Below are positions 23,665-32,903 of a stretch of DNA of 33,139 bases, one piece after another. This DNA comes from a virus (lineage: Duplodnaviria; Heunggongvirae; Uroviricota; Caudoviricetes): the IMG/VR virus record IMGVR_UViG_2703719355_000019; one strand, 5' to 3'. Under the pieces are notes generated by a model that saw only the letters and a program-made list of their open reading frames with translations, had not been told where the DNA came from and did no database searches. The translations under genes were made by a program, and so were the position numbers. Numbering within the stretch: position 1 is the stretch's first letter; every line of letters begins with the position of its first letter.

Positions 23665-24132
23665 TTAATCAAAAAGCCCCACCTGGGTGGGGCTTTTCAG
23701 CGAAGTCTGTTTTTGTCGTCGGTGTATCAGCTGCCATGCGTACCGGTCTGAAATGCCGTAACGGGGACAGAGCAGTGCCAGCGCCTGCCGGTGTGAGCAT
23801 CCGTCTTTTATATGCTGCTGTAAATCAGCCATAAAACGGGTGTTACGCAGGGCACGTAATGCATGATCGCAACGGGGAATGTAAAACGGAGCACCGCCAA
23901 GAAAGCGGATCAGTTTGTTGATTTCGTCTTCGGTCAGCACATCATGTAACAGGGCATGGACGCCGCCGGTGCGTTCAGCGTGTGCGCCGGTTTTACCGCT
24001 TAACGTCACGCCACCAAAAGAACGGATTAACCGGGTCAGGGCGGGGAAGCCAATCACGCTAATCAGTTGTTGCACGGAGTCGGGCAGCAGTGCCTGCGCA
24101 TCGCGAAGATCTGTTTCACTGAAGGTCTGCAT
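23665..24132 (-). CDS. Mor/C-family transcriptional activator
   Basis: 155-aa ORF with GGAPFYIP motif followed by a C-terminal helix-turn-helix-like segment; located after gemA as in Mu. Confidence 0.8.
   Translation of the reverse strand: MQTFSETDLRDAQALLPDSVQQLISVIGFPALTRLIRSFGGVTLSGKTGAHAERTGGVHALLHDVLTEDEINKLIRFLGGAPFYIPRCDHALRALRNTRFMADLQQHIKDGCSHRQALALLCPRYGISDRYAWQLIHRRQKQTSLKSPTQVGLFD
23671..23697. terminator. bidirectional intrinsic terminator at the 3' end of the Mor-family gene
   Basis: A5-GCCCCACC-TG-GGTGGGGC-T4; perfect GC-rich stem flanked by an A-run and a T-run. Confidence 0.6.
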
Positions 24133-24161: not shown

Positions 24162-24189
24162 ATTATAGCCATACATGATCGCCTGTACA
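24162..24189 (-). promoter_or_regulatory. sigma70-like promoter upstream of the Mor-family gene
   Basis: On minus strand: -35 TGTACA (24189-24184), 16-nt spacer, -10 TATAAT (24167-24162); GGAG 8 nt upstream of the ATG at 24132. Confidence 0.4.
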
Positions 24190-24194
24190 GACCA

Positions 24195-24220
24195 CAAAAA
24201 AGCCCCTGCAAGGCAGAGGC
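24195..24220 (-). terminator. intrinsic terminator downstream of gemA-like gene
   Basis: Minus-strand RNA GCCUCUGC-CUU-GCAGGGGC (8-bp stem with one G-U pair) followed by U6; begins 8 nt after the gemA-like stop. Confidence 0.6.
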
Positions 24221-24227
24221 TGATTCT

Positions 24228-24641
24228 TTATTGTTTACGTGCTGCTCTGGCTCGTTTTCTGGCGTCTTTTGTCAGCGCCACCATCACCCCGAACAGTTGA
24301 TCATCTGTCAGCCATTCGATCACATGTTGCTTATACATGTGAGATGCCAGTCCTTCCGCATATGCCCAGGAACGACCGGCATCAGCCAGCAACGCTTCAA
24401 TTTTGGATAATACCGATTTTCTGCTCATTGCCACACGTGGGCGGCGACCTTTACCGGCGGGGGCTTTACGCGGAAATCCCTGTTCGTGCATGTATTCCCG
24501 GATGATGCGCAGTTCATCGAGGTTGCAGCGTGTGGTGCTGGTTTTACCGGTCAGGCGGGCCAGCGTCTGGCGATAAAGGACATCATCCCACCCCAGATAC
24601 GCCTGACCGGCTTTAATGGCTCCGATCATCTTTTTCAGCAT
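24228..24641 (-). CDS. gemA: GemA-like protein (Mu gp16-like, DUF1018-like)
   Basis: Start at ATG 24641 (MLKKMIGAIKAGQ..), preceded by GAGGA with an 8-nt spacer; basic C-terminus; position before the Mor-family gene. Confidence 0.7.
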   Translation of the reverse strand: MLKKMIGAIKAGQAYLGWDDVLYRQTLARLTGKTSTTRCNLDELRIIREYMHEQGFPRKAPAGKGRRPRVAMSRKSVLSKIEALLADAGRSWAYAEGLASHMYKQHVIEWLTDDQLFGVMVALTKDARKRARAARKQ

Positions 24642-24891
24642 GTTTGTTATCCTCAAAACGCACGGTAAAACGTGAAACGCCAATCCCTGACAGGAACGCA
24701 GCGGCACGGTCAAGAGACAGCCACGTCTTGTAATCGCCACGGCGTTCCTGTAGAAAATAGGACACCCCGGCGCGACGATTCACAGCAAAGAGGTGATACA
24801 CACCACCGAACCGCTGCACGACGAACTCATCCACGCCACCGCTTTCAGCCTGTTGCCTGAAAGCTGCCATTCCGATTTGTTCAATCTTCAT
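24613..24891 (-). CDS. hypothetical protein
   Basis: Minus-strand ORF; start uncertain (ATG 24891, no clear SD; track start GTG 24927); overlaps gemA start by 29 nt. Confidence 0.4.
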   Translation of the reverse strand: MKIEQIGMAAFRQQAESGGVDEFVVQRFGGVYHLFAVNRRAGVSYFLQERRGDYKTWLSLDRAAAFLSGIGVSRFTVRFEDNKHAEKDDRSH

Positions 24892-24958
24892 AATGACCAA
24901 AACATCACTTTTGGCAGACCAAAACACATGTTTTGGTCTGCGTTTGATTACTGTTCAA

Positions 24959-25177
24959 TCAACCCGCGTAATCGGGGCCGTGTTCCCATCTGGCATCGAG
25001 TATTTCCGTTCCATCTGTCCGGCATGGGTTATCAAGTGCCATTTTTCCGCACTCCCCATACTCGACATCGACAAAATCAGCAATATCATTGTCCGTTGCG
25101 TTATCAGGAACGTCGATTTCAACCGTTACGGTGATAGTTTTCATCAGGTTGTTACTCCGTGATTCAGAAAATTTCAT
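24959..25177 (-). CDS. small acidic protein (72 aa)
   Basis: ATG at 25177; alternative ATG at 25144 (MKTITVTVEIDV..); rich in Asp/Glu. Confidence 0.5.
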   Translation of the reverse strand: MKFSESRSNNLMKTITVTVEIDVPDNATDNDIADFVDVEYGECGKMALDNPCRTDGTEILDARWEHGPDYAG

Positions 25178-25185
25178 GCCGGGAC

Positions 25186-25596
25186 TCAGTATGTGAAATA
25201 GACAGTTGCCACACCGTTATAGTGGTCAAACGACACAGCGTTTACCTCATAACTGGCCGGGAGCTTCGAGCCAAGAACGTATCCGGGCCACGTTTTCCAT
25301 GGAATTTCTCTGCTCTCACTGTCGCCATATACCGTACATCCCAGTGAGCCTACAGCTTCATAAGAACGCTTACCGCACGTTATGAACCCCAGATGTTGCT
25401 TACTGCCCTTAACAGAAATCGGGAGAGCACTGGCTGATGCGTTAGCAGCGTCCCGCTCCTGTTGGCTTGCGATATTCGCAGAGTTTGCAGCAGCTACAGC
25501 AGCTGTGGTCGCAGCGGTAGATGCCACAATAACTGCTGAAGCCTGCGCCTGTTGGGTAATTGTCAGCAATGCCGCCACAAAAATCATTTTCTTCAC
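25186..25596 (-). CDS. secreted protein with N-terminal signal peptide
   Basis: GTG start at 25596 preceded by AGGAGG with a 6-nt spacer; MKKMIFVAALLTITQQAQA signal-like N-terminus; mature part contains two Cys. Confidence 0.7.
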   Translation of the reverse strand: MKKMIFVAALLTITQQAQASAVIVASTAATTAAVAAANSANIASQQERDAANASASALPISVKGSKQHLGFITCGKRSYEAVGSLGCTVYGDSESREIPWKTWPGYVLGSKLPASYEVNAVSFDHYNGVATVYFTY

Positions 25597-25608
25597 CTGG
25601 CACCTCCT

Positions 25609-25785
25609 TTACATACCGTGATTTTTCCTGCGGTTTTGCGCCGCGCTGGGCTTTTTGCAACAACTGTGCCCCATAACCCCTAAAAACCCTGTCAACCTCA
25701 ACCGTCTGTTACTAATCCTCACCCACCGCCAGACATCAAAGCCGTTTCTGCGAGCTAACAGAATTTTTGCCTTACGGTTTTTCAT
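25609..25785 (-). CDS. small basic protein B (58 aa), tandem paralogue
   Basis: ATG 25785-25783 overlaps the stop of paralogue A (ATGA); translation MKNRKAKILLARR..KKPSAAQNRRKNHGM. Confidence 0.45.
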   Translation of the reverse strand: MKNRKAKILLARRNGFDVWRWVRISNRRLRLTGFLGVMGHSCCKKPSAAQNRRKNHGM

Positions 25786-25958
25786 CGTACTGCGTACCCT
25801 TTATTCCGCCTGTTCTGTGACGCAGTAGGCTTACGCTTTGCGGCAAAAGCCACCTGACCAAATGGATGGAGTACCGCTATCTTATGGTTGCTAATAACCA
25901 GCTCCACCACACGCACAGGTCGCTGTAAAAGAAGGCGTTTTGCTTTACGGTTTTTCAT
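25782..25958 (-). CDS. small basic protein A (58 aa), tandem paralogue
   Basis: ATG 25958-25956 preceded by GAGGAAGG; translation MKNRKAKRLLLQR..KRKPTASQNRRNKGYAVR; the 112-aa track ORF 26120..25782 is an overextension. Confidence 0.5.
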   Translation of the reverse strand: MKNRKAKRLLLQRPVRVVELVISNHKIAVLHPFGQVAFAAKRKPTASQNRRNKGYAVR

Positions 25959-25959
25959 C

Positions 25960-26151
25960 TCATCCTTCCTCGCTTTTTGCAGTTTCAAACCACGCATCCT
26001 GCCCCACAACATCATCACCACATGGTGGTTCAGATTCTGAATAGCGACCGGCCCACCAGTATTTACCATTACGATGCTTTGCTGTGCCGCAACGCTGGCA
26101 TATGAAAATTGACCCATCACGCTGATAATGATGGATGTGCTCGTTACTCAT
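25960..26151 (-). CDS. small Cys/His-containing protein (63 aa), possible zinc-binding
   Basis: ORF with CQRCG..H motif; start overlaps upstream gene by 4 nt. Confidence 0.5.
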   Translation of the reverse strand: MSNEHIHHYQRDGSIFICQRCGTAKHRNGKYWWAGRYSESEPPCGDDVVGQDAWFETAKSEEG

Positions 26152-26372
26152 TGTGCAGCCTCCTGTTTTGCCACTTTAAACGCCCGTAACATCGGAACCG
26201 TTTTACCGGTGATGACGGTTTTCATTAAAAGGCCGCCGCCACTCTGGTGGCGCACTTCAGGAGCAACAAACAGCGCCGCATCCACAACCCGACAATAGCG
26301 ACGGAACTCCCAGAACCAGCAGGTAACAATGATTTTTGCGGTGACTCCGTAGTCATAAAATTCAATATTCAT
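26148..26372 (-). CDS. hypothetical protein (74 aa)
   Basis: ORF translationally coupled to both neighbours by 4-nt overlaps. Confidence 0.5.
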   Translation of the reverse strand: MNIEFYDYGVTAKIIVTCWFWEFRRYCRVVDAALFVAPEVRHQSGGGLLMKTVITGKTVPMLRAFKVAKQEAAQ

Positions 26373-26596
26373 TTGCAGTTAAACCTTCTTTTGTGACGTT
26401 CTACAGCGGCTTTCATGGCGTTGTGCACGGTTCTTTTAATAATCCGGCGTCCCGCACTGTCATAGAACCGCCACCGGGAAGCCTCCGGATATTTAGGGAA
26501 CTCAACCGCCGCGCTGTCGTCATTCATCCTGTATTCGTGGCGTTCTCCGGGCGGCTGGTATATTGCTTCGGTAACACTGAGAAGTTTAAAAGCCAT
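26369..26596 (-). CDS. hypothetical protein (75 aa)
   Basis: ORF starting 3 nt after the stop of the upstream 237-aa gene. Confidence 0.5.
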   Translation of the reverse strand: MAFKLLSVTEAIYQPPGERHEYRMNDDSAAVEFPKYPEASRWRFYDSAGRRIIKRTVHNAMKAAVERHKRRFNCK

Positions 26597-26598
26597 CG

Positions 26599-27312
26599 TT
26601 ATCCCCTCCCCAGTGCCAGCGGCCTGTTGTTCTGACCATTAACTCCCTGATGCAGTCTGGCGTTTTTCCCGGCGATAAAACCGGCTGTAGCAGCAAACTC
26701 TGCACCCCTGCACGCTTTAGCTGTGCGCATATCCCCGTCGCGCAGCCCTTTAGTGCTGTGCAGGTTCTTTCTGTAAAGCTCAAGGCGGCTTTTTTCTTCC
26801 GGGGAGACGTCATACACCGCAATGACATCACGGGCACCAAAGACCCAGCCTTCGCAGAACTGGTCGCCACGGACCACCCGCGTGGACGGACCGCAACGTT
26901 TGCAGTGTTTATCCTGATATTTCTTGCGCTCTGCCATCATCTGACGGGAAAGCACATCAAACGCATATGCCGCAATTTCCGGGCGGCTGTCAGGACCATA
27001 AAAACGCACGTAACGTTTGAGTGAACCAGAAGCCCGGTATTCACCTGAGATGTAACACTCGACACCGAAGGCTTTACATACCAGGTCACACAGGATGTGC
27101 ATATAACGCGGCGGCGTACTGGCATCACTCGGCGCACCCGCGCTGGCAGCTTCCTGAATGTCGAACAATTCCGCATCGTTTTCGCTGATACCATGCTGGC
27201 GCATATAAGCCTGGGCTTTTGCAATAGCGTTAGCGGCTTCTTCCGGGCTTGATGTTCCTCTGGCAAGGCGTAACAGTTTTTTGATTTTGGCGATGTATTT
27301 ATTTTTGCTCAT
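26599..27312 (-). CDS. DUF2786-like phage protein (237 aa)
   Basis: N-terminal KIKKLLRLARGTSSPEEAANAIAKAQAYMRQHGI resembles the DUF2786 motif; GGAGGG 8 nt upstream of ATG 27312. Confidence 0.65.
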   Translation of the reverse strand: MSKNKYIAKIKKLLRLARGTSSPEEAANAIAKAQAYMRQHGISENDAELFDIQEAASAGAPSDASTPPRYMHILCDLVCKAFGVECYISGEYRASGSLKRYVRFYGPDSRPEIAAYAFDVLSRQMMAERKKYQDKHCKRCGPSTRVVRGDQFCEGWVFGARDVIAVYDVSPEEKSRLELYRKNLHSTKGLRDGDMRTAKACRGAEFAATAGFIAGKNARLHQGVNGQNNRPLALGRG

Positions 27313-27694
27313 TGTCTACTCCCTCCAACAACGTGGTGATGAAATGTCCAGCCATTACTCCGGCATCACGATAAGCGCATCGTGTTTTGCTTTCTGATTG
27401 TTTACGCCGGGGAACGGAATAAGCTGATGCAAACATCTCCGCCCTGAATTGCTGCATTGTCAGGACTTTCAATTGCAGGAGACGCTCTTCATCGCTGCAT
27501 ACTGTGCTCATTAATCCATCAAGGATGACATTAAAAGCCCGGTATACCGGGTCATCTTTTGTTCGTTTTGTCAGGGCCACAGCACTGATTATTGACAATG
27601 CGCACTCAAGCTTTTTCAGCTCTGATAAGTTGTCGTTCTTTATTTCTGCATTTTTATTTAGCCATTCAACAGGTGACCAGACTTTATCTTTCAT
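27299..27694 (-). CDS. hypothetical cargo protein 2 (131 aa) behind duplicated leader
   Basis: ATG 27694 preceded by AAGGGGA; N-terminus MKDKVW shared with cargo protein 1, rest unrelated. Confidence 0.6.
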   Translation of the reverse strand: MKDKVWSPVEWLNKNAEIKNDNLSELKKLECALSIISAVALTKRTKDDPVYRAFNVILDGLMSTVCSDEERLLQLKVLTMQQFRAEMFASAYSVPRRKQSESKTRCAYRDAGVMAGHFITTLLEGVDNEQK

Positions 27695-27744
27695 ATACAA
27701 ATCCCCTTAATTCAGGCGTAAGCCAGCCCCGGCGGGTTTACGCC
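27681..27744 (-). repeat. duplicated 64-bp leader element, copy A
   Basis: Identical to 28306-28369 except one base; contains inverted repeat GGCGTAA..TTACGCC, the SD and the first codons of the downstream gene. Confidence 0.85.
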
Positions 27745-27773
27745 ATATACAAATAAAATTAAAAACAGACTTA

Positions 27774-28319
27774 TTAACTACGACGTTCAGCTTTCCGGTA
27801 ATGACGGTCAACAGACTTTACGAACGCCTTCACATCACGGGAAATCGAATCCAGCGGATAATATTCATCCAGCAGTTCCATTCCGCTGAATCGAATCTGA
27901 AAAAAATCAGGCTTATCTTTATATGACTCCATCAGGTCAATAAACCGCAGCTGACGCGGGAGGGATTCCTGCACACCTGAAATAGTGAGCAAATCATCTT
28001 CAAGGATGTATGCGAGGTCTTCCATATCCTTACAGTCAGACAGCATGGATATTCTTGTCAGTATGTTCCGTGTGGCGATATACAGCGCTGCTGTGTCATT
28101 CGCCATCATGGCGAACAAATCCCCCTGAATATACGCCCCGCTACTGGCCACAGCATTCCCGGCAATCTGGGCATCAAGCACTACATCCATAAAATTACCA
28201 GGTGCTCCCAGACAACCCAGCAAGGATGACGCCCATAACGCTACATTGGTTAATTTCTCAGATGAACGGGTAGCAAAACCTTCAGGAGTAACAATAAAAT
28301 CCCATACTTTATCTTTCAT
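27774..28319 (-). CDS. hypothetical cargo protein 1 (181 aa) behind duplicated leader
   Basis: ATG 28319 preceded by AAGGGGA; N-terminus MKDKVW. Confidence 0.65.
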   Translation of the reverse strand: MKDKVWDFIVTPEGFATRSSEKLTNVALWASSLLGCLGAPGNFMDVVLDAQIAGNAVASSGAYIQGDLFAMMANDTAALYIATRNILTRISMLSDCKDMEDLAYILEDDLLTISGVQESLPRQLRFIDLMESYKDKPDFFQIRFSGMELLDEYYPLDSISRDVKAFVKSVDRHYRKAERRS

Positions 28320-28369
28320 ATATAAATCCCCTTAATTCAGGCGTAAGCCAGCCCCGGCGGGTTTACGCC
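28306..28369 (-). repeat. duplicated 64-bp leader element, copy B
   Basis: See copy A; the two copies are 625 bp apart. Confidence 0.85.
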
Positions 28370-28400
28370 TGTTTTAAATAACAATTAAAAATGAATTAAA

Positions 28401-28592
28401 TTAATGTGCTGCTTTCAGTGTTTCGACCTTTACGAAATAAGGCTCGACATTAATTTCAACCACACAACCACATTTAAAATCTCTGGCCGGTGCAACAGTT
28501 TTTACCACCCGACCACCACGCACCGCCTGATGTGCAATGTGCATGAAACGAGTACCAGGCGGATATAACTGATTAAAGCGTTTCGCGTTCAT
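28401..28592 (-). CDS. hypothetical small protein (63 aa)
   Basis: ATG 28592 (MNAKRFNQLYPPG..); start chosen inside the longer track ORF 28718..28401; overlaps upstream gene by 20 nt. Confidence 0.35.
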   Translation of the reverse strand: MNAKRFNQLYPPGTRFMHIAHQAVRGGRVVKTVAPARDFKCGCVVEINVEPYFVKVETLKAAH

Positions 28593-28806
28593 GAATCGGC
28601 TTCCATCCTTTCTGGTGAGCATTGGCACAGAACTGTGCCCGGTGTTCTGCCCAGATGCGGCGCAGGGTGCTACACGGGCTTTGCGCTGCCTTACGCCACA
28701 GCTTTTCAGCCTCGGCATAATCGCCGCGTTGTTCTGCTCTGGACGCGCCCAGCGAATACGCCGCGCAACTATTTCTGGCTCTGTACTCTTTGATATCCTG
28801 ATGCAT
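28573..28806 (-). CDS. small protein (77 aa), possible ANR-like regulator
   Basis: ATG 28806 one nt after the upstream stop, preceded by AGGGG; RGDYAEAEKLWRKAA and IWAEHRAQFC motifs resemble small ANR-type phage regulators. Confidence 0.45.
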   Translation of the reverse strand: MHQDIKEYRARNSCAAYSLGASRAEQRGDYAEAEKLWRKAAQSPCSTLRRIWAEHRAQFCANAHQKGWKPIHERETL

Positions 28807-28807
28807 G

Positions 28808-29452
28808 TTAAACCCCTGCAATATCAAGCGGGATTGCGCGGTATTCATCAGAATCACCGACGCGCTCATACACGCGGATATAGCTTCTGCTACCAACCAC
28901 CTGGACGGCTTCACCAATCAGTTTCATGGCGTTATCCCAGCGTTCCTCCGTAATATCGAGACGACGCAGAGCCAGAACGCGACCGGTGTTGATGTTGCCT
29001 TCCTTGTCCGTGCTGAATGCCTCACTGATGATGGCCTTAATTTCAGGGCGTGCGCCTTCCGTCCAGTCAGCCAGACAGTCATCAATCAGCGCCTTCGCGG
29101 TCTGAATGCGTTCATCAAGCGCGATACGGTCCTGCATGGCGCGCTGAATCTTGTAACGCCCGTCAAAGCTGTACAGCGTGATATTCCCTTTTTTACCGCC
29201 TTTCACAGCGCCGTATTTCTCCGCCGACAGGTCAATAAATGCCTGAATATCACCAAACGCACGCAGCTTCAGTTCACGCAGTGAGGCGGAGGCAGCAATC
29301 ACCATCTCCACAAGCTCACCGACCAGCTGCTCACGGTCGCGGTCAATATCTTTGATAAGACTTTCAGGCGTCATCACACCACGGGCATCAACCCAGTAGC
29401 CTTCCTGCACTTTATTTTTTGTATATTGCTTAACTTTGTTTTCAGTCATCAT
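28808..29452 (-). CDS. conserved Mu-like early-region protein (214 aa), tentatively DUF3164-like
   Basis: Long ORF in the early operon; family assignment is from memory and untested. Confidence 0.65.
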   Translation of the reverse strand: MMTENKVKQYTKNKVQEGYWVDARGVMTPESLIKDIDRDREQLVGELVEMVIAASASLRELKLRAFGDIQAFIDLSAEKYGAVKGGKKGNITLYSFDGRYKIQRAMQDRIALDERIQTAKALIDDCLADWTEGARPEIKAIISEAFSTDKEGNINTGRVLALRRLDITEERWDNAMKLIGEAVQVVGSRSYIRVYERVGDSDEYRAIPLDIAGV

Positions 29453-29481
29453 AATTAAATTACCTCAGTGATATTTACAGA

Positions 29482-29697
29482 TTAATTTGTGTTATGTGCG
29501 CGAGGCGCAACGTTTTCAGAAAAAAGATTCACGCCGTTATAGTCATTTCTGAGCGTTTCCTTGATAACATCATGTAATCTTGTTGCCACCTGAAACTCCT
29601 TTTCGGAAGCTCCGTCCTTCGAATAACTCCCCGTGGTCTGGGTTAATACACAGCCTTTTTCATCGGTATAGATAATTACTTCTAACTTAACCGCCAT
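29482..29697 (-). CDS. hypothetical protein (71 aa)
   Basis: ORF in the early operon downstream of B. Confidence 0.5.
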   Translation of the reverse strand: MAVKLEVIIYTDEKGCVLTQTTGSYSKDGASEKEFQVATRLHDVIKETLRNDYNGVNLFSENVAPRAHNTN

Positions 29698-29709
29698 TCT
29701 GATTTCCTC

Positions 29710-29949
29710 TCATTGCCATACGACGGTGCAGCCGTCGATACAGGACGTTTTAACCACGCGGCGCAGGCCGCTGAATGTCTGGATGATTTCCGTTACCGGC
29801 CATACAGGACCACCCACGGGCGGGCAGGCATAAACCACAGGTAAACGGTGATGTTGTCCCGTTACACGACCACCAGTGGTGTGGATGGCCACACGGGCAC
29901 GGGAACGGACGGCGTTAATGGTCTGCTTGTCCATCGTCTTGTTCTCCAT
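29710..29949 (-). CDS. hypothetical protein (79 aa), first gene after B
   Basis: ATG overlaps the B stop (TGATG); Cys-containing. Confidence 0.5.
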   Translation of the reverse strand: MENKTMDKQTINAVRSRARVAIHTTGGRVTGQHHRLPVVYACPPVGGPVWPVTEIIQTFSGLRRVVKTSCIDGCTVVWQ

Positions 29950-30842
29950 CAGTGAATTAACATTTCTGCGAATTTATCAATGGCCTGCACACTGACCGGC
30001 GCATCGCTGATATCACAAATCCGGTACACACCACGCGCCAGCTTGAACAGACGGCGGGCATTACCCAGCGAACGTGTATAAAGCGCCTCGCTGATTTCCG
30101 GCTCTGCTGCTTCCGGCATCAACCCGGTAGCTATCTGGTTAAAATCTTCCTGCGACAACGTATCGCCCAGGTTAAGCGCCAGCGCCACGCGGCTGTATAA
30201 CTGGGCGAACTCACCACGACGCCCCTTGAGGTTAATCAGAAGGCGAGGCATACCCGCCAGAACAACCCCGATACCCGCTTTGTCATGCAGACGGCGCAGA
30301 ACCTCCAGGGCGCGATAGGGGAGCAGTTCAGCCTCGTCCACCATCAGCAGACGACCGGAATCACGCAGTTCGCGCACACAGGCATCTATCAGTTCGTGAA
30401 TGTTGCCGCGAACCTTTACCCCCAGCTGGCGGCACAACTCCTCAAGCAGTGTTCTGGCTGTATAGCCCGGGTCAGCCTCAATCAGGACCGCATCCCGGTT
30501 TCTGGCGGCGTATTCACGCAGAATCATTGTTTTGCCAAGACCTGCTGCGCCATACAGCACACAGATTTCACATTCCAGGTGAGCGTAGGCCAGCACCTCC
30601 AGTCCTTTGGCAGTCATACTGGTGGTCACAAACTTTGCTTTAATACGGCGGCTGTTTTCCTTTTCCCGCTCACGGGTCACAAAGGCAGAAATGCGTTCTT
30701 CAATATCAGCCATATCGCCCTGATATTTACCCTGTAAATACTGGCTGATAACGGCGCTGCTACGCCCAATGGCACGGGCGACGTGGGTCTGCGTATAGCC
30801 GCGACGGGCCATTACGTCATTTAATTGCGTAATTAAACTCAT
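29949..30842 (-). CDS. B: DNA transposition ATPase (MuB-like, AAA+)
   Basis: 297-aa ORF with Walker A GAAGLGKT; directly downstream of the transposase. Confidence 0.9.
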   Translation of the reverse strand: MSLITQLNDVMARRGYTQTHVARAIGRSSAVISQYLQGKYQGDMADIEERISAFVTREREKENSRRIKAKFVTTSMTAKGLEVLAYAHLECEICVLYGAAGLGKTMILREYAARNRDAVLIEADPGYTARTLLEELCRQLGVKVRGNIHELIDACVRELRDSGRLLMVDEAELLPYRALEVLRRLHDKAGIGVVLAGMPRLLINLKGRRGEFAQLYSRVALALNLGDTLSQEDFNQIATGLMPEAAEPEISEALYTRSLGNARRLFKLARGVYRICDISDAPVSVQAIDKFAEMLIH

Positions 30843-30860: not shown

Positions 30861-32903
30861 TTAACGGTTGTTTGTGCCGTTTTTCTTTAAATTGCGCTCG
30901 CGTTCAGATGCGAATAAATAAAGTTCTTCTTTTTCCTTTTTCTCCGGGCGCTCCAGTCCATATCCCAGATTAAAGTCAGGCTTCTGCGTAATAGCCGGAG
31001 TAAGCTCGCGTTTAGCCTCTTCGATTTTCTGCGTGGCCCGTGCAATGCGGCCCCTGACGCGTTTCTCCAGTTTTTGTTCGATAACTGGTTTAGCGAAGGC
31101 ATCAACCTTGTTACCGTTCCAGATGGCATCGCAGATATAAGAGCCATCAGCCCGCCGGACAATGACGCTGTTTGCATCATGAATATCGTAACTGACCCTG
31201 ACTTCATTCCCGTGCTCTGCGGCCAGCTCATACGAGTAATAAATATTGTTGAATAACTGAATTTCCCCGCGAAATGTTTTGCGCGTCACTTCCGGCCTGA
31301 ACATTTCATGCAGTTCTTCCGGCGACAGGAAATCAATTTCAACATTCTGCTCTTTTATCAGTTTCCGGCGATACGCTGCCGGGCTGTAATGCTCGCCATC
31401 CTCTTTGCGAGGAAGGCTGCTGTGTGGCCGGTTGTTATAGCGTCTGACCTCCAGCTCTATGGCTGCCATCAGTTGCTCAAAGGTAGGGATTTCATCCCTC
31501 GCCTTAACCTGCCGTTTTGTCAGCTCTTTCCCTTTGTGGGTGGCCTTAATGGCTGACTGCATAATCCGTTGCTGCATCATTACGGTTTCCTTGTCTGCAT
31601 CCCTTGCGCAGTACGTCTGGAAACTCAGGGCCACGTCTTTGGGTATTTCCTTGTTAACCCTTTCAATCACCCCGCGCCCCTGCGGGTTACCTGGTATCCC
31701 CGTGTGATGTTCCACACCCAGACGGGGCAGAATCCCGGTAATATCGGCATCAAGCACCCGGTTTTTTTCGCCGCCCCCGTTATCGGAGTAATAAATCAGC
31801 GGTATCCCGTGCTGTGCCATGCCGTAACGTAACGCATCAGCAACGGCTATCACGTTCTCCGACAGGGACAGTGACCAGCCCACAATAAAGCGTTGTCCTG
31901 CATCCATAACCAGCGTCACTTCTGGCCGGAAAATATTGCCGGTCAGTGGGTTAAACGCGGTCATTTTCATACAGTGACCATCCCCGACCCATACCGCATT
32001 AACCGGTAATGTGCTCCAGTCGCGCCGCACAAAAGGATTGAGCGAACGCCAGGCTGAACCGGTGGAGCGGAAACGTTCTTTAACAATCACCGGAACGCTG
32101 CTTAACACCCGTCTGACTGCGTGAACTGAAGGCAGTGCTGCCAGCATTCCCGTATCATTCGCGTGTTTTTCATGCCACCAGGCTGAAAACTCGCGATACG
32201 CATATTCAACGGTCGGTCGCTTCCATGAACGATAGAACATAAAGAAATCGCTCAACCACCAGACCTGCTCCCACGGTGTTCCCTTATGATGACCGGGAGC
32301 CAGTAACGCCAGTAACTGATTGGCATCACCGCGCGCCATCACCCAGCTGGAGTACCAGCTATCCAGGCTGCCGGTGCTGACACCGGTTCGCTTTCCCTGA
32401 CGTGCATTTGCAGTATTAGCTGCTTCGATAATGCGGTCAGGTAACGCCCCCATGCGCACACCATCAACGATGTGCTTTAAAGCGGCCTTCCTGGTCATTC
32501 CGGCATACTCGCGCAGCTTATGCACTTCAGTAGCCAGCAATATCCGCGCATCAGCGATGGCCTTTTGCTTGTCAGTCAGTGCCTGAACTTCACGTAATGC
32601 CAGTTCCGGGCATTTGACCATCACCTCCAGTTCATCGCGAACGGCGACGTTTTTAACTGCCTTCTGCTCAACCACGGCGGGCAGTTGCGTATCTTCCAGA
32701 ACCTGATGGGTCAGGCGCTTACGTAAAACTTTCTGCGCTTCAGCGGGCAGGCAGTCGATGTGATACTCGAATGCTTTGGTGCCTTCGCGCTTGCGCTTCC
32801 ATTCCGGGTGCGTCTCTGTGATCCGATTGAGCGTCCAGCGCACCCCCTGAACTGTACCGGGCAAACCAGGAAGACCGGCCAGCTCATTGGCTGAATAAAA
32901 CAT
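30861..32903 (-). CDS. A: DDE transposase (MuA-like)
   Basis: 680-aa ORF between the ner-like and B-like genes; size and position match MuA. Confidence 0.9.
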   Translation of the reverse strand: MFYSANELAGLPGLPGTVQGVRWTLNRITETHPEWKRKREGTKAFEYHIDCLPAEAQKVLRKRLTHQVLEDTQLPAVVEQKAVKNVAVRDELEVMVKCPELALREVQALTDKQKAIADARILLATEVHKLREYAGMTRKAALKHIVDGVRMGALPDRIIEAANTANARQGKRTGVSTGSLDSWYSSWVMARGDANQLLALLAPGHHKGTPWEQVWWLSDFFMFYRSWKRPTVEYAYREFSAWWHEKHANDTGMLAALPSVHAVRRVLSSVPVIVKERFRSTGSAWRSLNPFVRRDWSTLPVNAVWVGDGHCMKMTAFNPLTGNIFRPEVTLVMDAGQRFIVGWSLSLSENVIAVADALRYGMAQHGIPLIYYSDNGGGEKNRVLDADITGILPRLGVEHHTGIPGNPQGRGVIERVNKEIPKDVALSFQTYCARDADKETVMMQQRIMQSAIKATHKGKELTKRQVKARDEIPTFEQLMAAIELEVRRYNNRPHSSLPRKEDGEHYSPAAYRRKLIKEQNVEIDFLSPEELHEMFRPEVTRKTFRGEIQLFNNIYYSYELAAEHGNEVRVSYDIHDANSVIVRRADGSYICDAIWNGNKVDAFAKPVIEQKLEKRVRGRIARATQKIEEAKRELTPAITQKPDFNLGYGLERPEKKEKEELYLFASERERNLKKNGTNNR

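Follow-up and report, generated by a model that had tools for sequence, protein, structure and literature searches.

What is encoded between genes B and gemA of a Mu-family prophage of E. coli, and does this part of the early region contain an undescribed anti-defence or host-modulation system, as an initial annotation of the sequence had proposed? The question is raised by the IMG/VR record IMGVR_UViG_2703719355_000019, a stretch of 33,139 nucleotides (hereafter, the window) that represents a nearly complete Mu-family prophage of E. coli, reading on the minus strand. Sixteen genes (g1 to g16) were called between B and gemA, all on the minus strand and filling positions 24613-29949; below, this region is referred to as the island. 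Our analysis suggests that the island is probably the semi-essential (SE) early accessory region of the prophage, composed of a backbone and two exchange slots, with early cargo marked by a hairpin, and with the cargo of the first slot (slot 1) likely directed against nucleases or restriction.

The split into backbone and cargo was derived from the comparison of 116 loci, namely four from annotated E. coli relatives, 32 from species-representative genomes, and 80 from IMG/VR. Each gene of the window was scored by tblastn against all of them, and 21 E. coli loci were considered as close relatives. The backbone, essentially always present in these 21 loci, consists of g1, g2 (as two alleles), g3, g4, g5, g8, g9, g10, g16, gemA and mor. 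The cargo genes are patchy: g14 is found in 11/21 loci, g6 in 7/21, g12 in 6/21, g15 in 4/21, g11 in 2/21, and g7 in 1/21; g13 forms two allele groups. The conserved backbone accounts for more than half of the island, the cargo being the smaller share. Distant Mu-like phages (those of Morganella, Serratia, Pantoea, Pseudomonas and others) keep only DUF3164 (g3), g5, DUF2786 (g8), g9, GemA and Mor. Hence the comparison with related prophages, proposed in the initial annotation as a check, has revealed both variable cargo and genes with no detectable Mu counterpart, rather than a set of known Mu functions.

The cargo is located in two slots. Slot 1, from g5 to g8 and with g6 and g7 as the cargo, varies across relatives from 89 nt, when it is empty, to 1359 nt, and slot 2, from g10 to g16 and with g11-g15 as the cargo, from 847 to 2542 nt. 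The B-kil junction, the surroundings of g2 and the gap between gemA and mor are minor variable points. Of the 5426 complete E. coli genomes searched, 58 have the DUF3164 allele of this family of prophages, 28 have g6, and 2 have g7; no isolated coliphage of the phage collection searched carries the island.

Slot 1 contains a duplicated leader. A direct repeat of 97 nt (27677-27773 / 28302-28398, 87% identity), situated upstream of g6 and g7 and extending into them, is formed by an AT-rich tract, the 30-nt hairpin GGCGTAAACCCGCCGGGGCTGGCTTACGCC, a Shine-Dalgarno sequence and six codons, MKDKVW. The hairpin is GC-rich, conforms to the pattern GGCGTAA-N16-TTACGCC and is preceded by the AT-rich tract. 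Its first copy (28340-28369, minus strand; covariance model R1 at 28329-28380, 72 bits) marks the upstream edge of the slot, and the second one (27715-27744, minus strand; R1 at 27704-27755, 71.5 bits) lies between g6 and g7. In the 33-kb window the covariance model yields exactly these two copies and none elsewhere.

The hairpin follows g5 in 21/21 close relatives. Wherever a g6-type cassette is present, in the window as in close relatives, a further copy stands behind it. It also occurs between other cargo genes, and some cassette junctions lack a copy. Downstream of g5 it is present in 54/56 distinct sequences, even those where g5 itself is only 34-55% identical, and the exact 30-mer was found in 38 IMG/VR contigs, in some of which g5 and DUF2786 match their window counterparts at only 35-50% identity. 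Each locus has one to three copies, all of them within slot 1 and on the sense strand, 12-20 nt ahead of the next Shine-Dalgarno sequence. The clearest array of hairpin-separated cassettes is the one in IMG/VR contig 2825508220_000003 (locus L139, positions 1969-2938), where three hairpins about 459 nt apart bound two cassettes, encoding a DUF7448-like and a VVA0879-family protein.

The 7-bp outer stem is invariant in sequence except for two changes, both of which yield G-U pairs on the sense strand. The inner stem exists in different self-complementary versions (e.g. GCGTC/GACGC). The alignment fitted to the model, a procedure that favours the structure modelled, has one inner pair in paired form throughout (GC in 33, UG in 6, and UA in 3 cases); at three further inner positions pairing is absent from 11, 16 and 35 of the 43 distinct sequences, and there are 14 G-U cells vs 6 A-C cells.

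The covariance model has a single match in phage Mu (NC_000929, locus L117; 6357-6408, 33.5 bits, E 1.6e-6), and this match is located in the spacer between gam and Mup11. The flanks of the element are retained (CTTTTAATTAT ... TGAAA), and its stem, GGCGCGA/TCGCGCC, has two pairs changed on both sides in a compensatory manner. No hairpin was found by the covariance model in JBD5 and BcepMu, and comparison of the window with Rfam gave nothing at the gathering score, with only chance-level matches at the hairpin. No description of this hairpin or of a stem-loop in the Mu early transcript was found in the literature searched; the hairpin, conserved and present in Mu too, is the only feature of which this is true.

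Several known types of elements do not fit. The hairpin is not an intrinsic terminator, since there is no U-tract on the sense strand. An antisense terminator was rejected too: the T-run is not conserved, being missing from copy 2 and from Mu. Integron-like attC cassettes were also considered and set aside, since the hairpin is short and has perfect arms, and since none of the four annotated E. coli relatives has an integrase annotated in its island. The strand bias, the G-U pairs, the self-complementary spacer and the placement before the Shine-Dalgarno sequence together suggest that the hairpin acts in the early mRNA, where it may control processing and stability or translation and thereby set the expression of the genes behind it; its action as a recombination linker would be a by-product.

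Alternatively, the hairpin could be a site in double-stranded DNA, either a palindromic operator bound by a dimeric protein of the phage or the host, or a recombination site. In favour of this, the 7-bp arms are invariant across phages whose proteins are down to 35-50% identical, and the symmetric alteration of both arms in Mu is what co-evolving half-sites would produce. However, the versions of the spacer between the arms are themselves self-complementary, the asymmetric changes preserve G-U pairs on the sense strand only, the orientation is always sense, and the loci of the four annotated relatives contain no annotated recombinase gene. We therefore consider a DNA site improbable, although the palindromic operator remains a live alternative, and prefer the element acting in RNA.

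What the hairpin precedes differs from phage to phage. In at least nine loci slot 1 is empty and the hairpin is followed directly by DUF2786. Elsewhere the slot is occupied by a 60-aa gene, a gene encoding a DUF7448 protein, one encoding a CxxC protein of the VVA0879 family, or genes for unknown proteins of 141, 71 and 53 aa. In the E. coli F163 relative (locus L001), a 72-aa gene on the opposite strand (4698-4916) is situated between the 60-aa cargo gene and DUF2786. Three other occupants match named families: a 104-aa Lar-like protein (phrog_599, 8e-8), a 154-aa protein matching phrog_1518 'host nuclease inhibitor' (1.4e-19), and an 88-aa protein with a weak match to phrog_6755 'Mu Gam-like end protection' (6e-4). 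Given the Lar-like and the nuclease-inhibitor-annotated occupants, and given that the Mu element abuts gam, slot 1 appears to correspond in position to the neighbourhood of gam in Mu.

In the window the slot is occupied by two narrowly distributed orphan genes, both limited to E. coli. The product of g6 (27774-28319, minus strand; 181 aa, phrog_7741) belongs to an orphan family limited to E. coli Mu-like prophages: about twenty protein clusters, all with at least 85% identity, were found among 5.8e9 proteins searched. A HMMER search against 1.84e9 representatives yielded no genuine distant homologue: apart from the g6 cluster itself there were only a fragment and a Gram-positive MucBP repeat protein, and the latter match is regarded as spurious, its score being the sum of five weak repeat matches. 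Among the 58 E. coli genomes that have this prophage family, 28 carry g6. The rare cargo gene g7 (27299-27694, minus strand; 131 aa) overlaps the start of g8 by 14 nt and has no match in Pfam, PHROG, NCBIfam, PADLOC or PDB. Its homologues form four protein clusters only, all at least 83% identical (dN/dS, the ratio of nonsynonymous to synonymous substitution rates, is 0.41). An AlphaFold2 model of g7, built from an alignment of four sequences, consists of five helices with a predicted local distance difference test score (pLDDT) of 49 and is unusable for a fold search. The g7 homologues occupy the same place, directly ahead of DUF2786 and overlapping its start, but behind DUF7448 and not behind g6.

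The initial annotation had treated the genes behind the duplicated leader as a cargo set and the region as the likely seat of an undescribed system. The 97-nt repeat is present, and so is variable cargo, but the genes behind it are not a pair. A two-gene anti-defence system working as a unit could be imagined, as g6 and g7 are adjacent, have the 97-nt leader and the first six codons in common, and occur together in the window and in loci L049/L160. Nevertheless, g6 is found without g7 in 6/7 relatives and in 26/28 E. coli genomes, homologues of g7 with 83-85% identity follow DUF7448 instead of g6, and the two proteins have no similarity past the six recombined codons. Such a system is thus very improbable. 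Since g6 mostly occurs without g7, and g7 homologues follow DUF7448, the two genes are, judging by their distribution, independent cassettes rather than a system.

On circumstantial, purely positional grounds, host nucleases or restriction are the most likely targets of the g6 and g7 products. One can go further and suppose that, in enterobacterial Mu-family phages, the hairpin slot behind g5 (in Mu, behind gam) specifically accommodates counter-defence cassettes, that the hairpin is both an undescribed cis-acting RNA element of the early transcript, controlling cassette expression, and the recombination linker for cassette exchange, and that g6 and g7 encode new anti-nuclease or anti-restriction proteins. 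This more specific proposal is tentative and of rather low probability, and several observations weigh against it and against the role of slot 1 assumed here. Covariation in the inner stem is modest, RNAalifold backing the invariant outer stem only, and a palindromic DNA operator would account for the symmetric changes in Mu as well. The Lar-like match is under the curated cut-offs (27.5 vs 28.6 bits for PF14354, 25.9 vs 39.6 bits for TIGR03655). The name 'host nuclease inhibitor' of phrog_1518 is an annotation only, its relatives adjoining Gam in Pseudomonas Casadabanvirus phages. Neither g6 nor g7 has detectable homologues outside its own narrow family, and the g7 model gives no help.

Finally, the functions of the cargo genes are putative, and the anti-defence role is unproven. 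Profile and structure searches, also suggested in the initial annotation, have placed g1, g3, g4 and g8 in named families, but gave no significant PADLOC, Pfam, NCBIfam or PDB match of g6 and g7 to defence or restriction-alleviation families (no dedicated anti-defence library was among those searched); PADLOC yielded no real match in the island as a whole.

The transposase gene A (30861-32903) and B (29949-30842) are on one side of the island, and gemA (24228-24641; PF06252, 3.8e-18), which marks its end, and mor (23665-24132) are on the other, all of them and all island genes being on the minus strand. With this placement and with kil directly after B, the assignment to the Mu-type semi-essential early region, made in the initial annotation, holds. 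The tight packing described there is also observed, though with 16 genes called and not about 20. Six junctions overlap by 4-29 nt, four are spaced by 1-2 nt, and the rest by 8-81 nt. Long spacers are limited to the leaders of g6 and g7 (79-81 nt) and the 67-nt stretch ahead of g16.

All island genes with informative alleles have dN/dS in the range 0.04-0.41, and their homologues have no stop codons, which shows that these open reading frames (ORFs) are real genes. Purifying selection acts on all of them, being weaker for the cargo (0.17-0.41) than for the backbone (0.04-0.28).

A simple consensus scan of the minus strand at 24641-29949 revealed no sigma-70-like promoter site, and the first strong terminator, a hairpin with a T-run at 24201-24221, is located just past gemA, with no intrinsic terminator detected earlier in the island. 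With no internal promoter or terminator detected up to gemA, the island is most likely one long mRNA from the early promoter, and its co-transcription with A and B is likely; this argument is based on the simple consensus scan only, which has to be counted among the weak points of our interpretation. The gemA terminator is followed, before mor, by a promoter-like site TGTACA-16-TATAAT (both within 24162-24221, minus strand). In 11/20 scored close relatives the 95-nt spacer between gemA and mor is replaced by an insert of 440-680 nt encoding a signal-peptide protein of 112-174 aa, and so the spacer looks like a moron slot, empty in the window.

This bears on another explanation, in which the cargo consists of lysogenic-conversion 'morons' that benefit the host, for instance via superinfection exclusion by the secreted g14 product, rather than of genes for lytic counter-defence. 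Consistent with it, g14 bears a signal peptide, the signal-peptide proteins of relatives are encoded between gemA and mor beside the terminator and the promoter-like site, and low-level transcription of the SE genes from the early promoter Pe takes place in Mu lysogens (PMC3820752). On the other hand, the cargo of both slots is within the operon and on its strand, is either coupled translationally or preceded by nothing more than a Shine-Dalgarno sequence, and in the consensus scan shows neither an upstream promoter-like site nor a downstream terminator; moreover, g14 is present also in a strictly lytic phage. The moron explanation is therefore rather unlikely for the island, and early cargo used in the lytic programme is preferred.

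Slot 2 (24959-26151, minus strand) contains g11-g15, all on the minus strand and patchy in relatives. Here belong three products that the initial annotation had correctly singled out: a small Cys/His protein, an acidic protein and a signal-peptide protein. The first one is g11 (63 aa), which has a CxxC motif. It is followed by g12 and g13 (25609-25958; phrog_1380), tandem paralogues encoding basic proteins of 58 aa with an isoelectric point (pI) of 12; these genes are 88% identical at the nucleotide level to genes of P1-like and Stx phages, and the PGAP annotation of the relative L001 has only one of the two. The signal-peptide protein is g14 (25186-25596; 136 aa, with an Ala-rich linker and two Cys), whose homologue with 78% nucleotide identity is found in the strictly lytic Vequintavirinae phage Av-05. 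The acidic protein is g15 (61-72 aa, pI 4.1).

Upstream, slot 2 is bounded by the conserved 3' end of g10, each cargo start codon overlapping or abutting the g10 stop. At its downstream edge there is a palindrome, GCAGACCAAAACA..TGTTTTGGTCTGC, with a repeated 3' arm (24892-24945, minus strand; inverted repeat I4). It is perfect, 12-13 bp long, immediately precedes the start codon of g16, allows alternative pairings, and is kept in 21/21 relatives irrespective of the preceding cargo.

The backbone starts with g1 (29710-29949, minus strand; 79 aa), a Kil homologue missed in the initial annotation (phrog_2679 'Kil protein for bacterial septation inhibition', 8.4e-38). It is the first gene after B, its start overlapping the B stop by 1 nt, and is found in 21/21 close relatives with dN/dS 0.04; similarity to Kil of Mu is weak (34% over 44 aa; hhalign 41%). 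In five relatives (L045, L047, L048, L049, L051) an insert of about 375 nt with an ORF of 110-116 aa parts B from kil; in the window and the remaining relatives the two genes overlap by 1 nt or are about 10-15 nt apart. The next gene, g2 (29482-29697, minus strand; 71 aa, phrog_7438, 3.8e-52), has two allelic forms, its relatives being either about 82-99% or about 50% identical, and some loci add genes of 63 and 83 aa; g2 is thus one more minor exchange point.

Of all island genes, the most deeply conserved one is g3 (28808-29452, minus strand; 214 aa), encoding DUF3164 (PF11363, 4.6e-79) and present in BcepMu, phiE255, B3-like and Ralstonia Mu-like phages. Several DUF3164 homologues are named 'sulfate transporter' in NCBI and UniRef, a name that appears to be a propagated annotation error, as the phage protein is soluble and has 214 aa. 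Its AlphaFold2 model is confident (pLDDT 82.5) and has no significant structural match in PDB or BFVD.

The lack of Gam, already noted in the initial annotation, raises the possibility that DUF3164 replaces Gam functionally in this phage lineage, protecting DNA ends. Pfam reveals no Gam in the island, and Mu Gam was not found by tblastn in the window or in any of the 116 loci, all bearing DUF3164, which is also the best-conserved early gene after A and B. Against the replacement, DUF3164 has no sequence or profile similarity to Gam (hhalign probability 0.6%), its confident model has no Ku/Gam-like or other significant structural match, and the absence of Gam leans on the sensitivity of BLAST alone. 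Such a substitution seems unlikely.

Further backbone genes, all on the minus strand, include g4 (28573-28806; 77 aa, phrog_2227), found in 21/21 close relatives, whose product is the ANR-like regulator of the initial annotation (NF033650, 57.3 bits vs the cut-off of 32), and the conserved g5 (28401-28592; 63 aa, phrog_5591, 8.2e-41), detected in 55 of the first 116 loci and in 98 loci after later additions. The downstream edge of slot 1 is g8 (26599-27312; 237 aa), which stands immediately after the hairpin where the slot is empty and is the DUF2786-like protein of the initial annotation, with both a DUF2786 and a DUF7168 domain (PF10979, 5.3e-13; PF23771, 9.9e-29). It is followed by g9 and g10 (26148-26596; 75 and 74 aa, phrog_9400 and phrog_1001), both present in 20/21 close relatives, g9 being found in distant Mu-likes too. 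The last gene, g16 (24613-24891; 92 aa, phrog_7844, 2.4e-61), overlaps gemA by 29 nt, has no obvious Shine-Dalgarno sequence, and is present in 20/21 relatives with dN/dS 0.05.

In general, PHROG families cover 15/16 island genes, g7 being the sole exception, and the families of g2, g5, g6 and g9-g16 are of unknown function. PDB sequence searches with g3, g4, g5, g6, g7, g8, g14 and g16 gave nothing significant, and no functional description of DUF3164 or DUF2786 was found in the literature.

The following scheme may be proposed. The backbone would provide for host takeover and support transposition-replication; in particular, Kil would block cell division, and the ANR-like g4 might bind H-NS or AraC-type regulators. 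The slots would gather exchangeable, early-expressed cargo via homologous recombination at conserved junctions, and such recombination would explain the duplicated leader of g6 and g7, the shared first six codons included.

The island as a whole is as expected for a Mu-type phage and leaves the picture of these phages unchanged. The split into backbone and cargo points to targets for screening, namely the variable g6, g7 and g11-g15 and the conserved unknowns DUF3164, g5 and DUF2786/DUF7168. One hairpin marks the exchange site even among phages with proteins only about 35-50% identical. Slot 1 is a simple source of candidate counter-defence genes, these being whatever stands between the hairpin and DUF2786. 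Since the hairpin is next to gam in the model phage Mu, its role is directly testable in Mu genetics.

Among known systems, the ANR family (e.g. Aar of enteroaggregative E. coli; PMC4983702, PMC5570504) resembles g4 in that the latter is above the NCBIfam cut-off and has a fitting size. Unlike ANR genes, g4 belongs to a phage early operon, where its neighbours are DUF3164 and g5 and not an AraC/XylS regulator; no AraC-type gene is annotated in the homologous loci of the four annotated relatives. In the paper describing the family (PMC4983702), phage and prophage terms occur only in one unrelated entry of the reference list.

Cassette exchange in slot 1 would be similar to that of PeSL cassettes of T4-type phages, in which conserved intergenic stem-loop motifs flank variable orphan genes in hyperplastic regions and are thought to drive modular shuffling via recombination (PMC2839356, PMC4122927). 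In both cases a conserved stem-loop flanks variable ORFs, with one to three hairpins per locus in the island. A PeSL combines an early promoter with a terminator-like stem-loop, whereas the island hairpin has neither a promoter consensus nor a U-tract; thus cargo exchange here would resemble the PeSL one (PMC2839356) minus the promoter and the terminator. Moreover, PeSLs are dispersed across the genome, while the hairpin is restricted to a single locus.

By sequence, the closest sequenced phages for the island backbone are BcepMu, phiE255 and the B3-like phages, which have DUF3164 (60-67% identity), GemA and Mor in the same order. Still, B and gemA of BcepMu are separated by just five genes, HU-like and SSB-like ones among them; this phage lacks the hairpin and, by the annotation of its record, has a transposase of the Tn552 type and not of the Mu type.

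Lastly, the SE genes of Mu itself are largely uncharacterised and are co-transcribed from Pe (PMC3820752). According to tblastn and to hhalign of all island proteins against all Mu SE proteins, only kil, gemA and mor are detectably shared; the island has no Gam, and its backbone, with DUF3164, the ANR-like protein, g5 and DUF2786/DUF7168, differs from that of Mu. As for the likeness, the island has the same position and strand as the Mu SE region relative to A, B, gemA and mor, with kil as the first gene after B, it is likewise a long tight run of small genes of mostly unknown function, and a homologous hairpin is found in the gam-Mup11 spacer of Mu.

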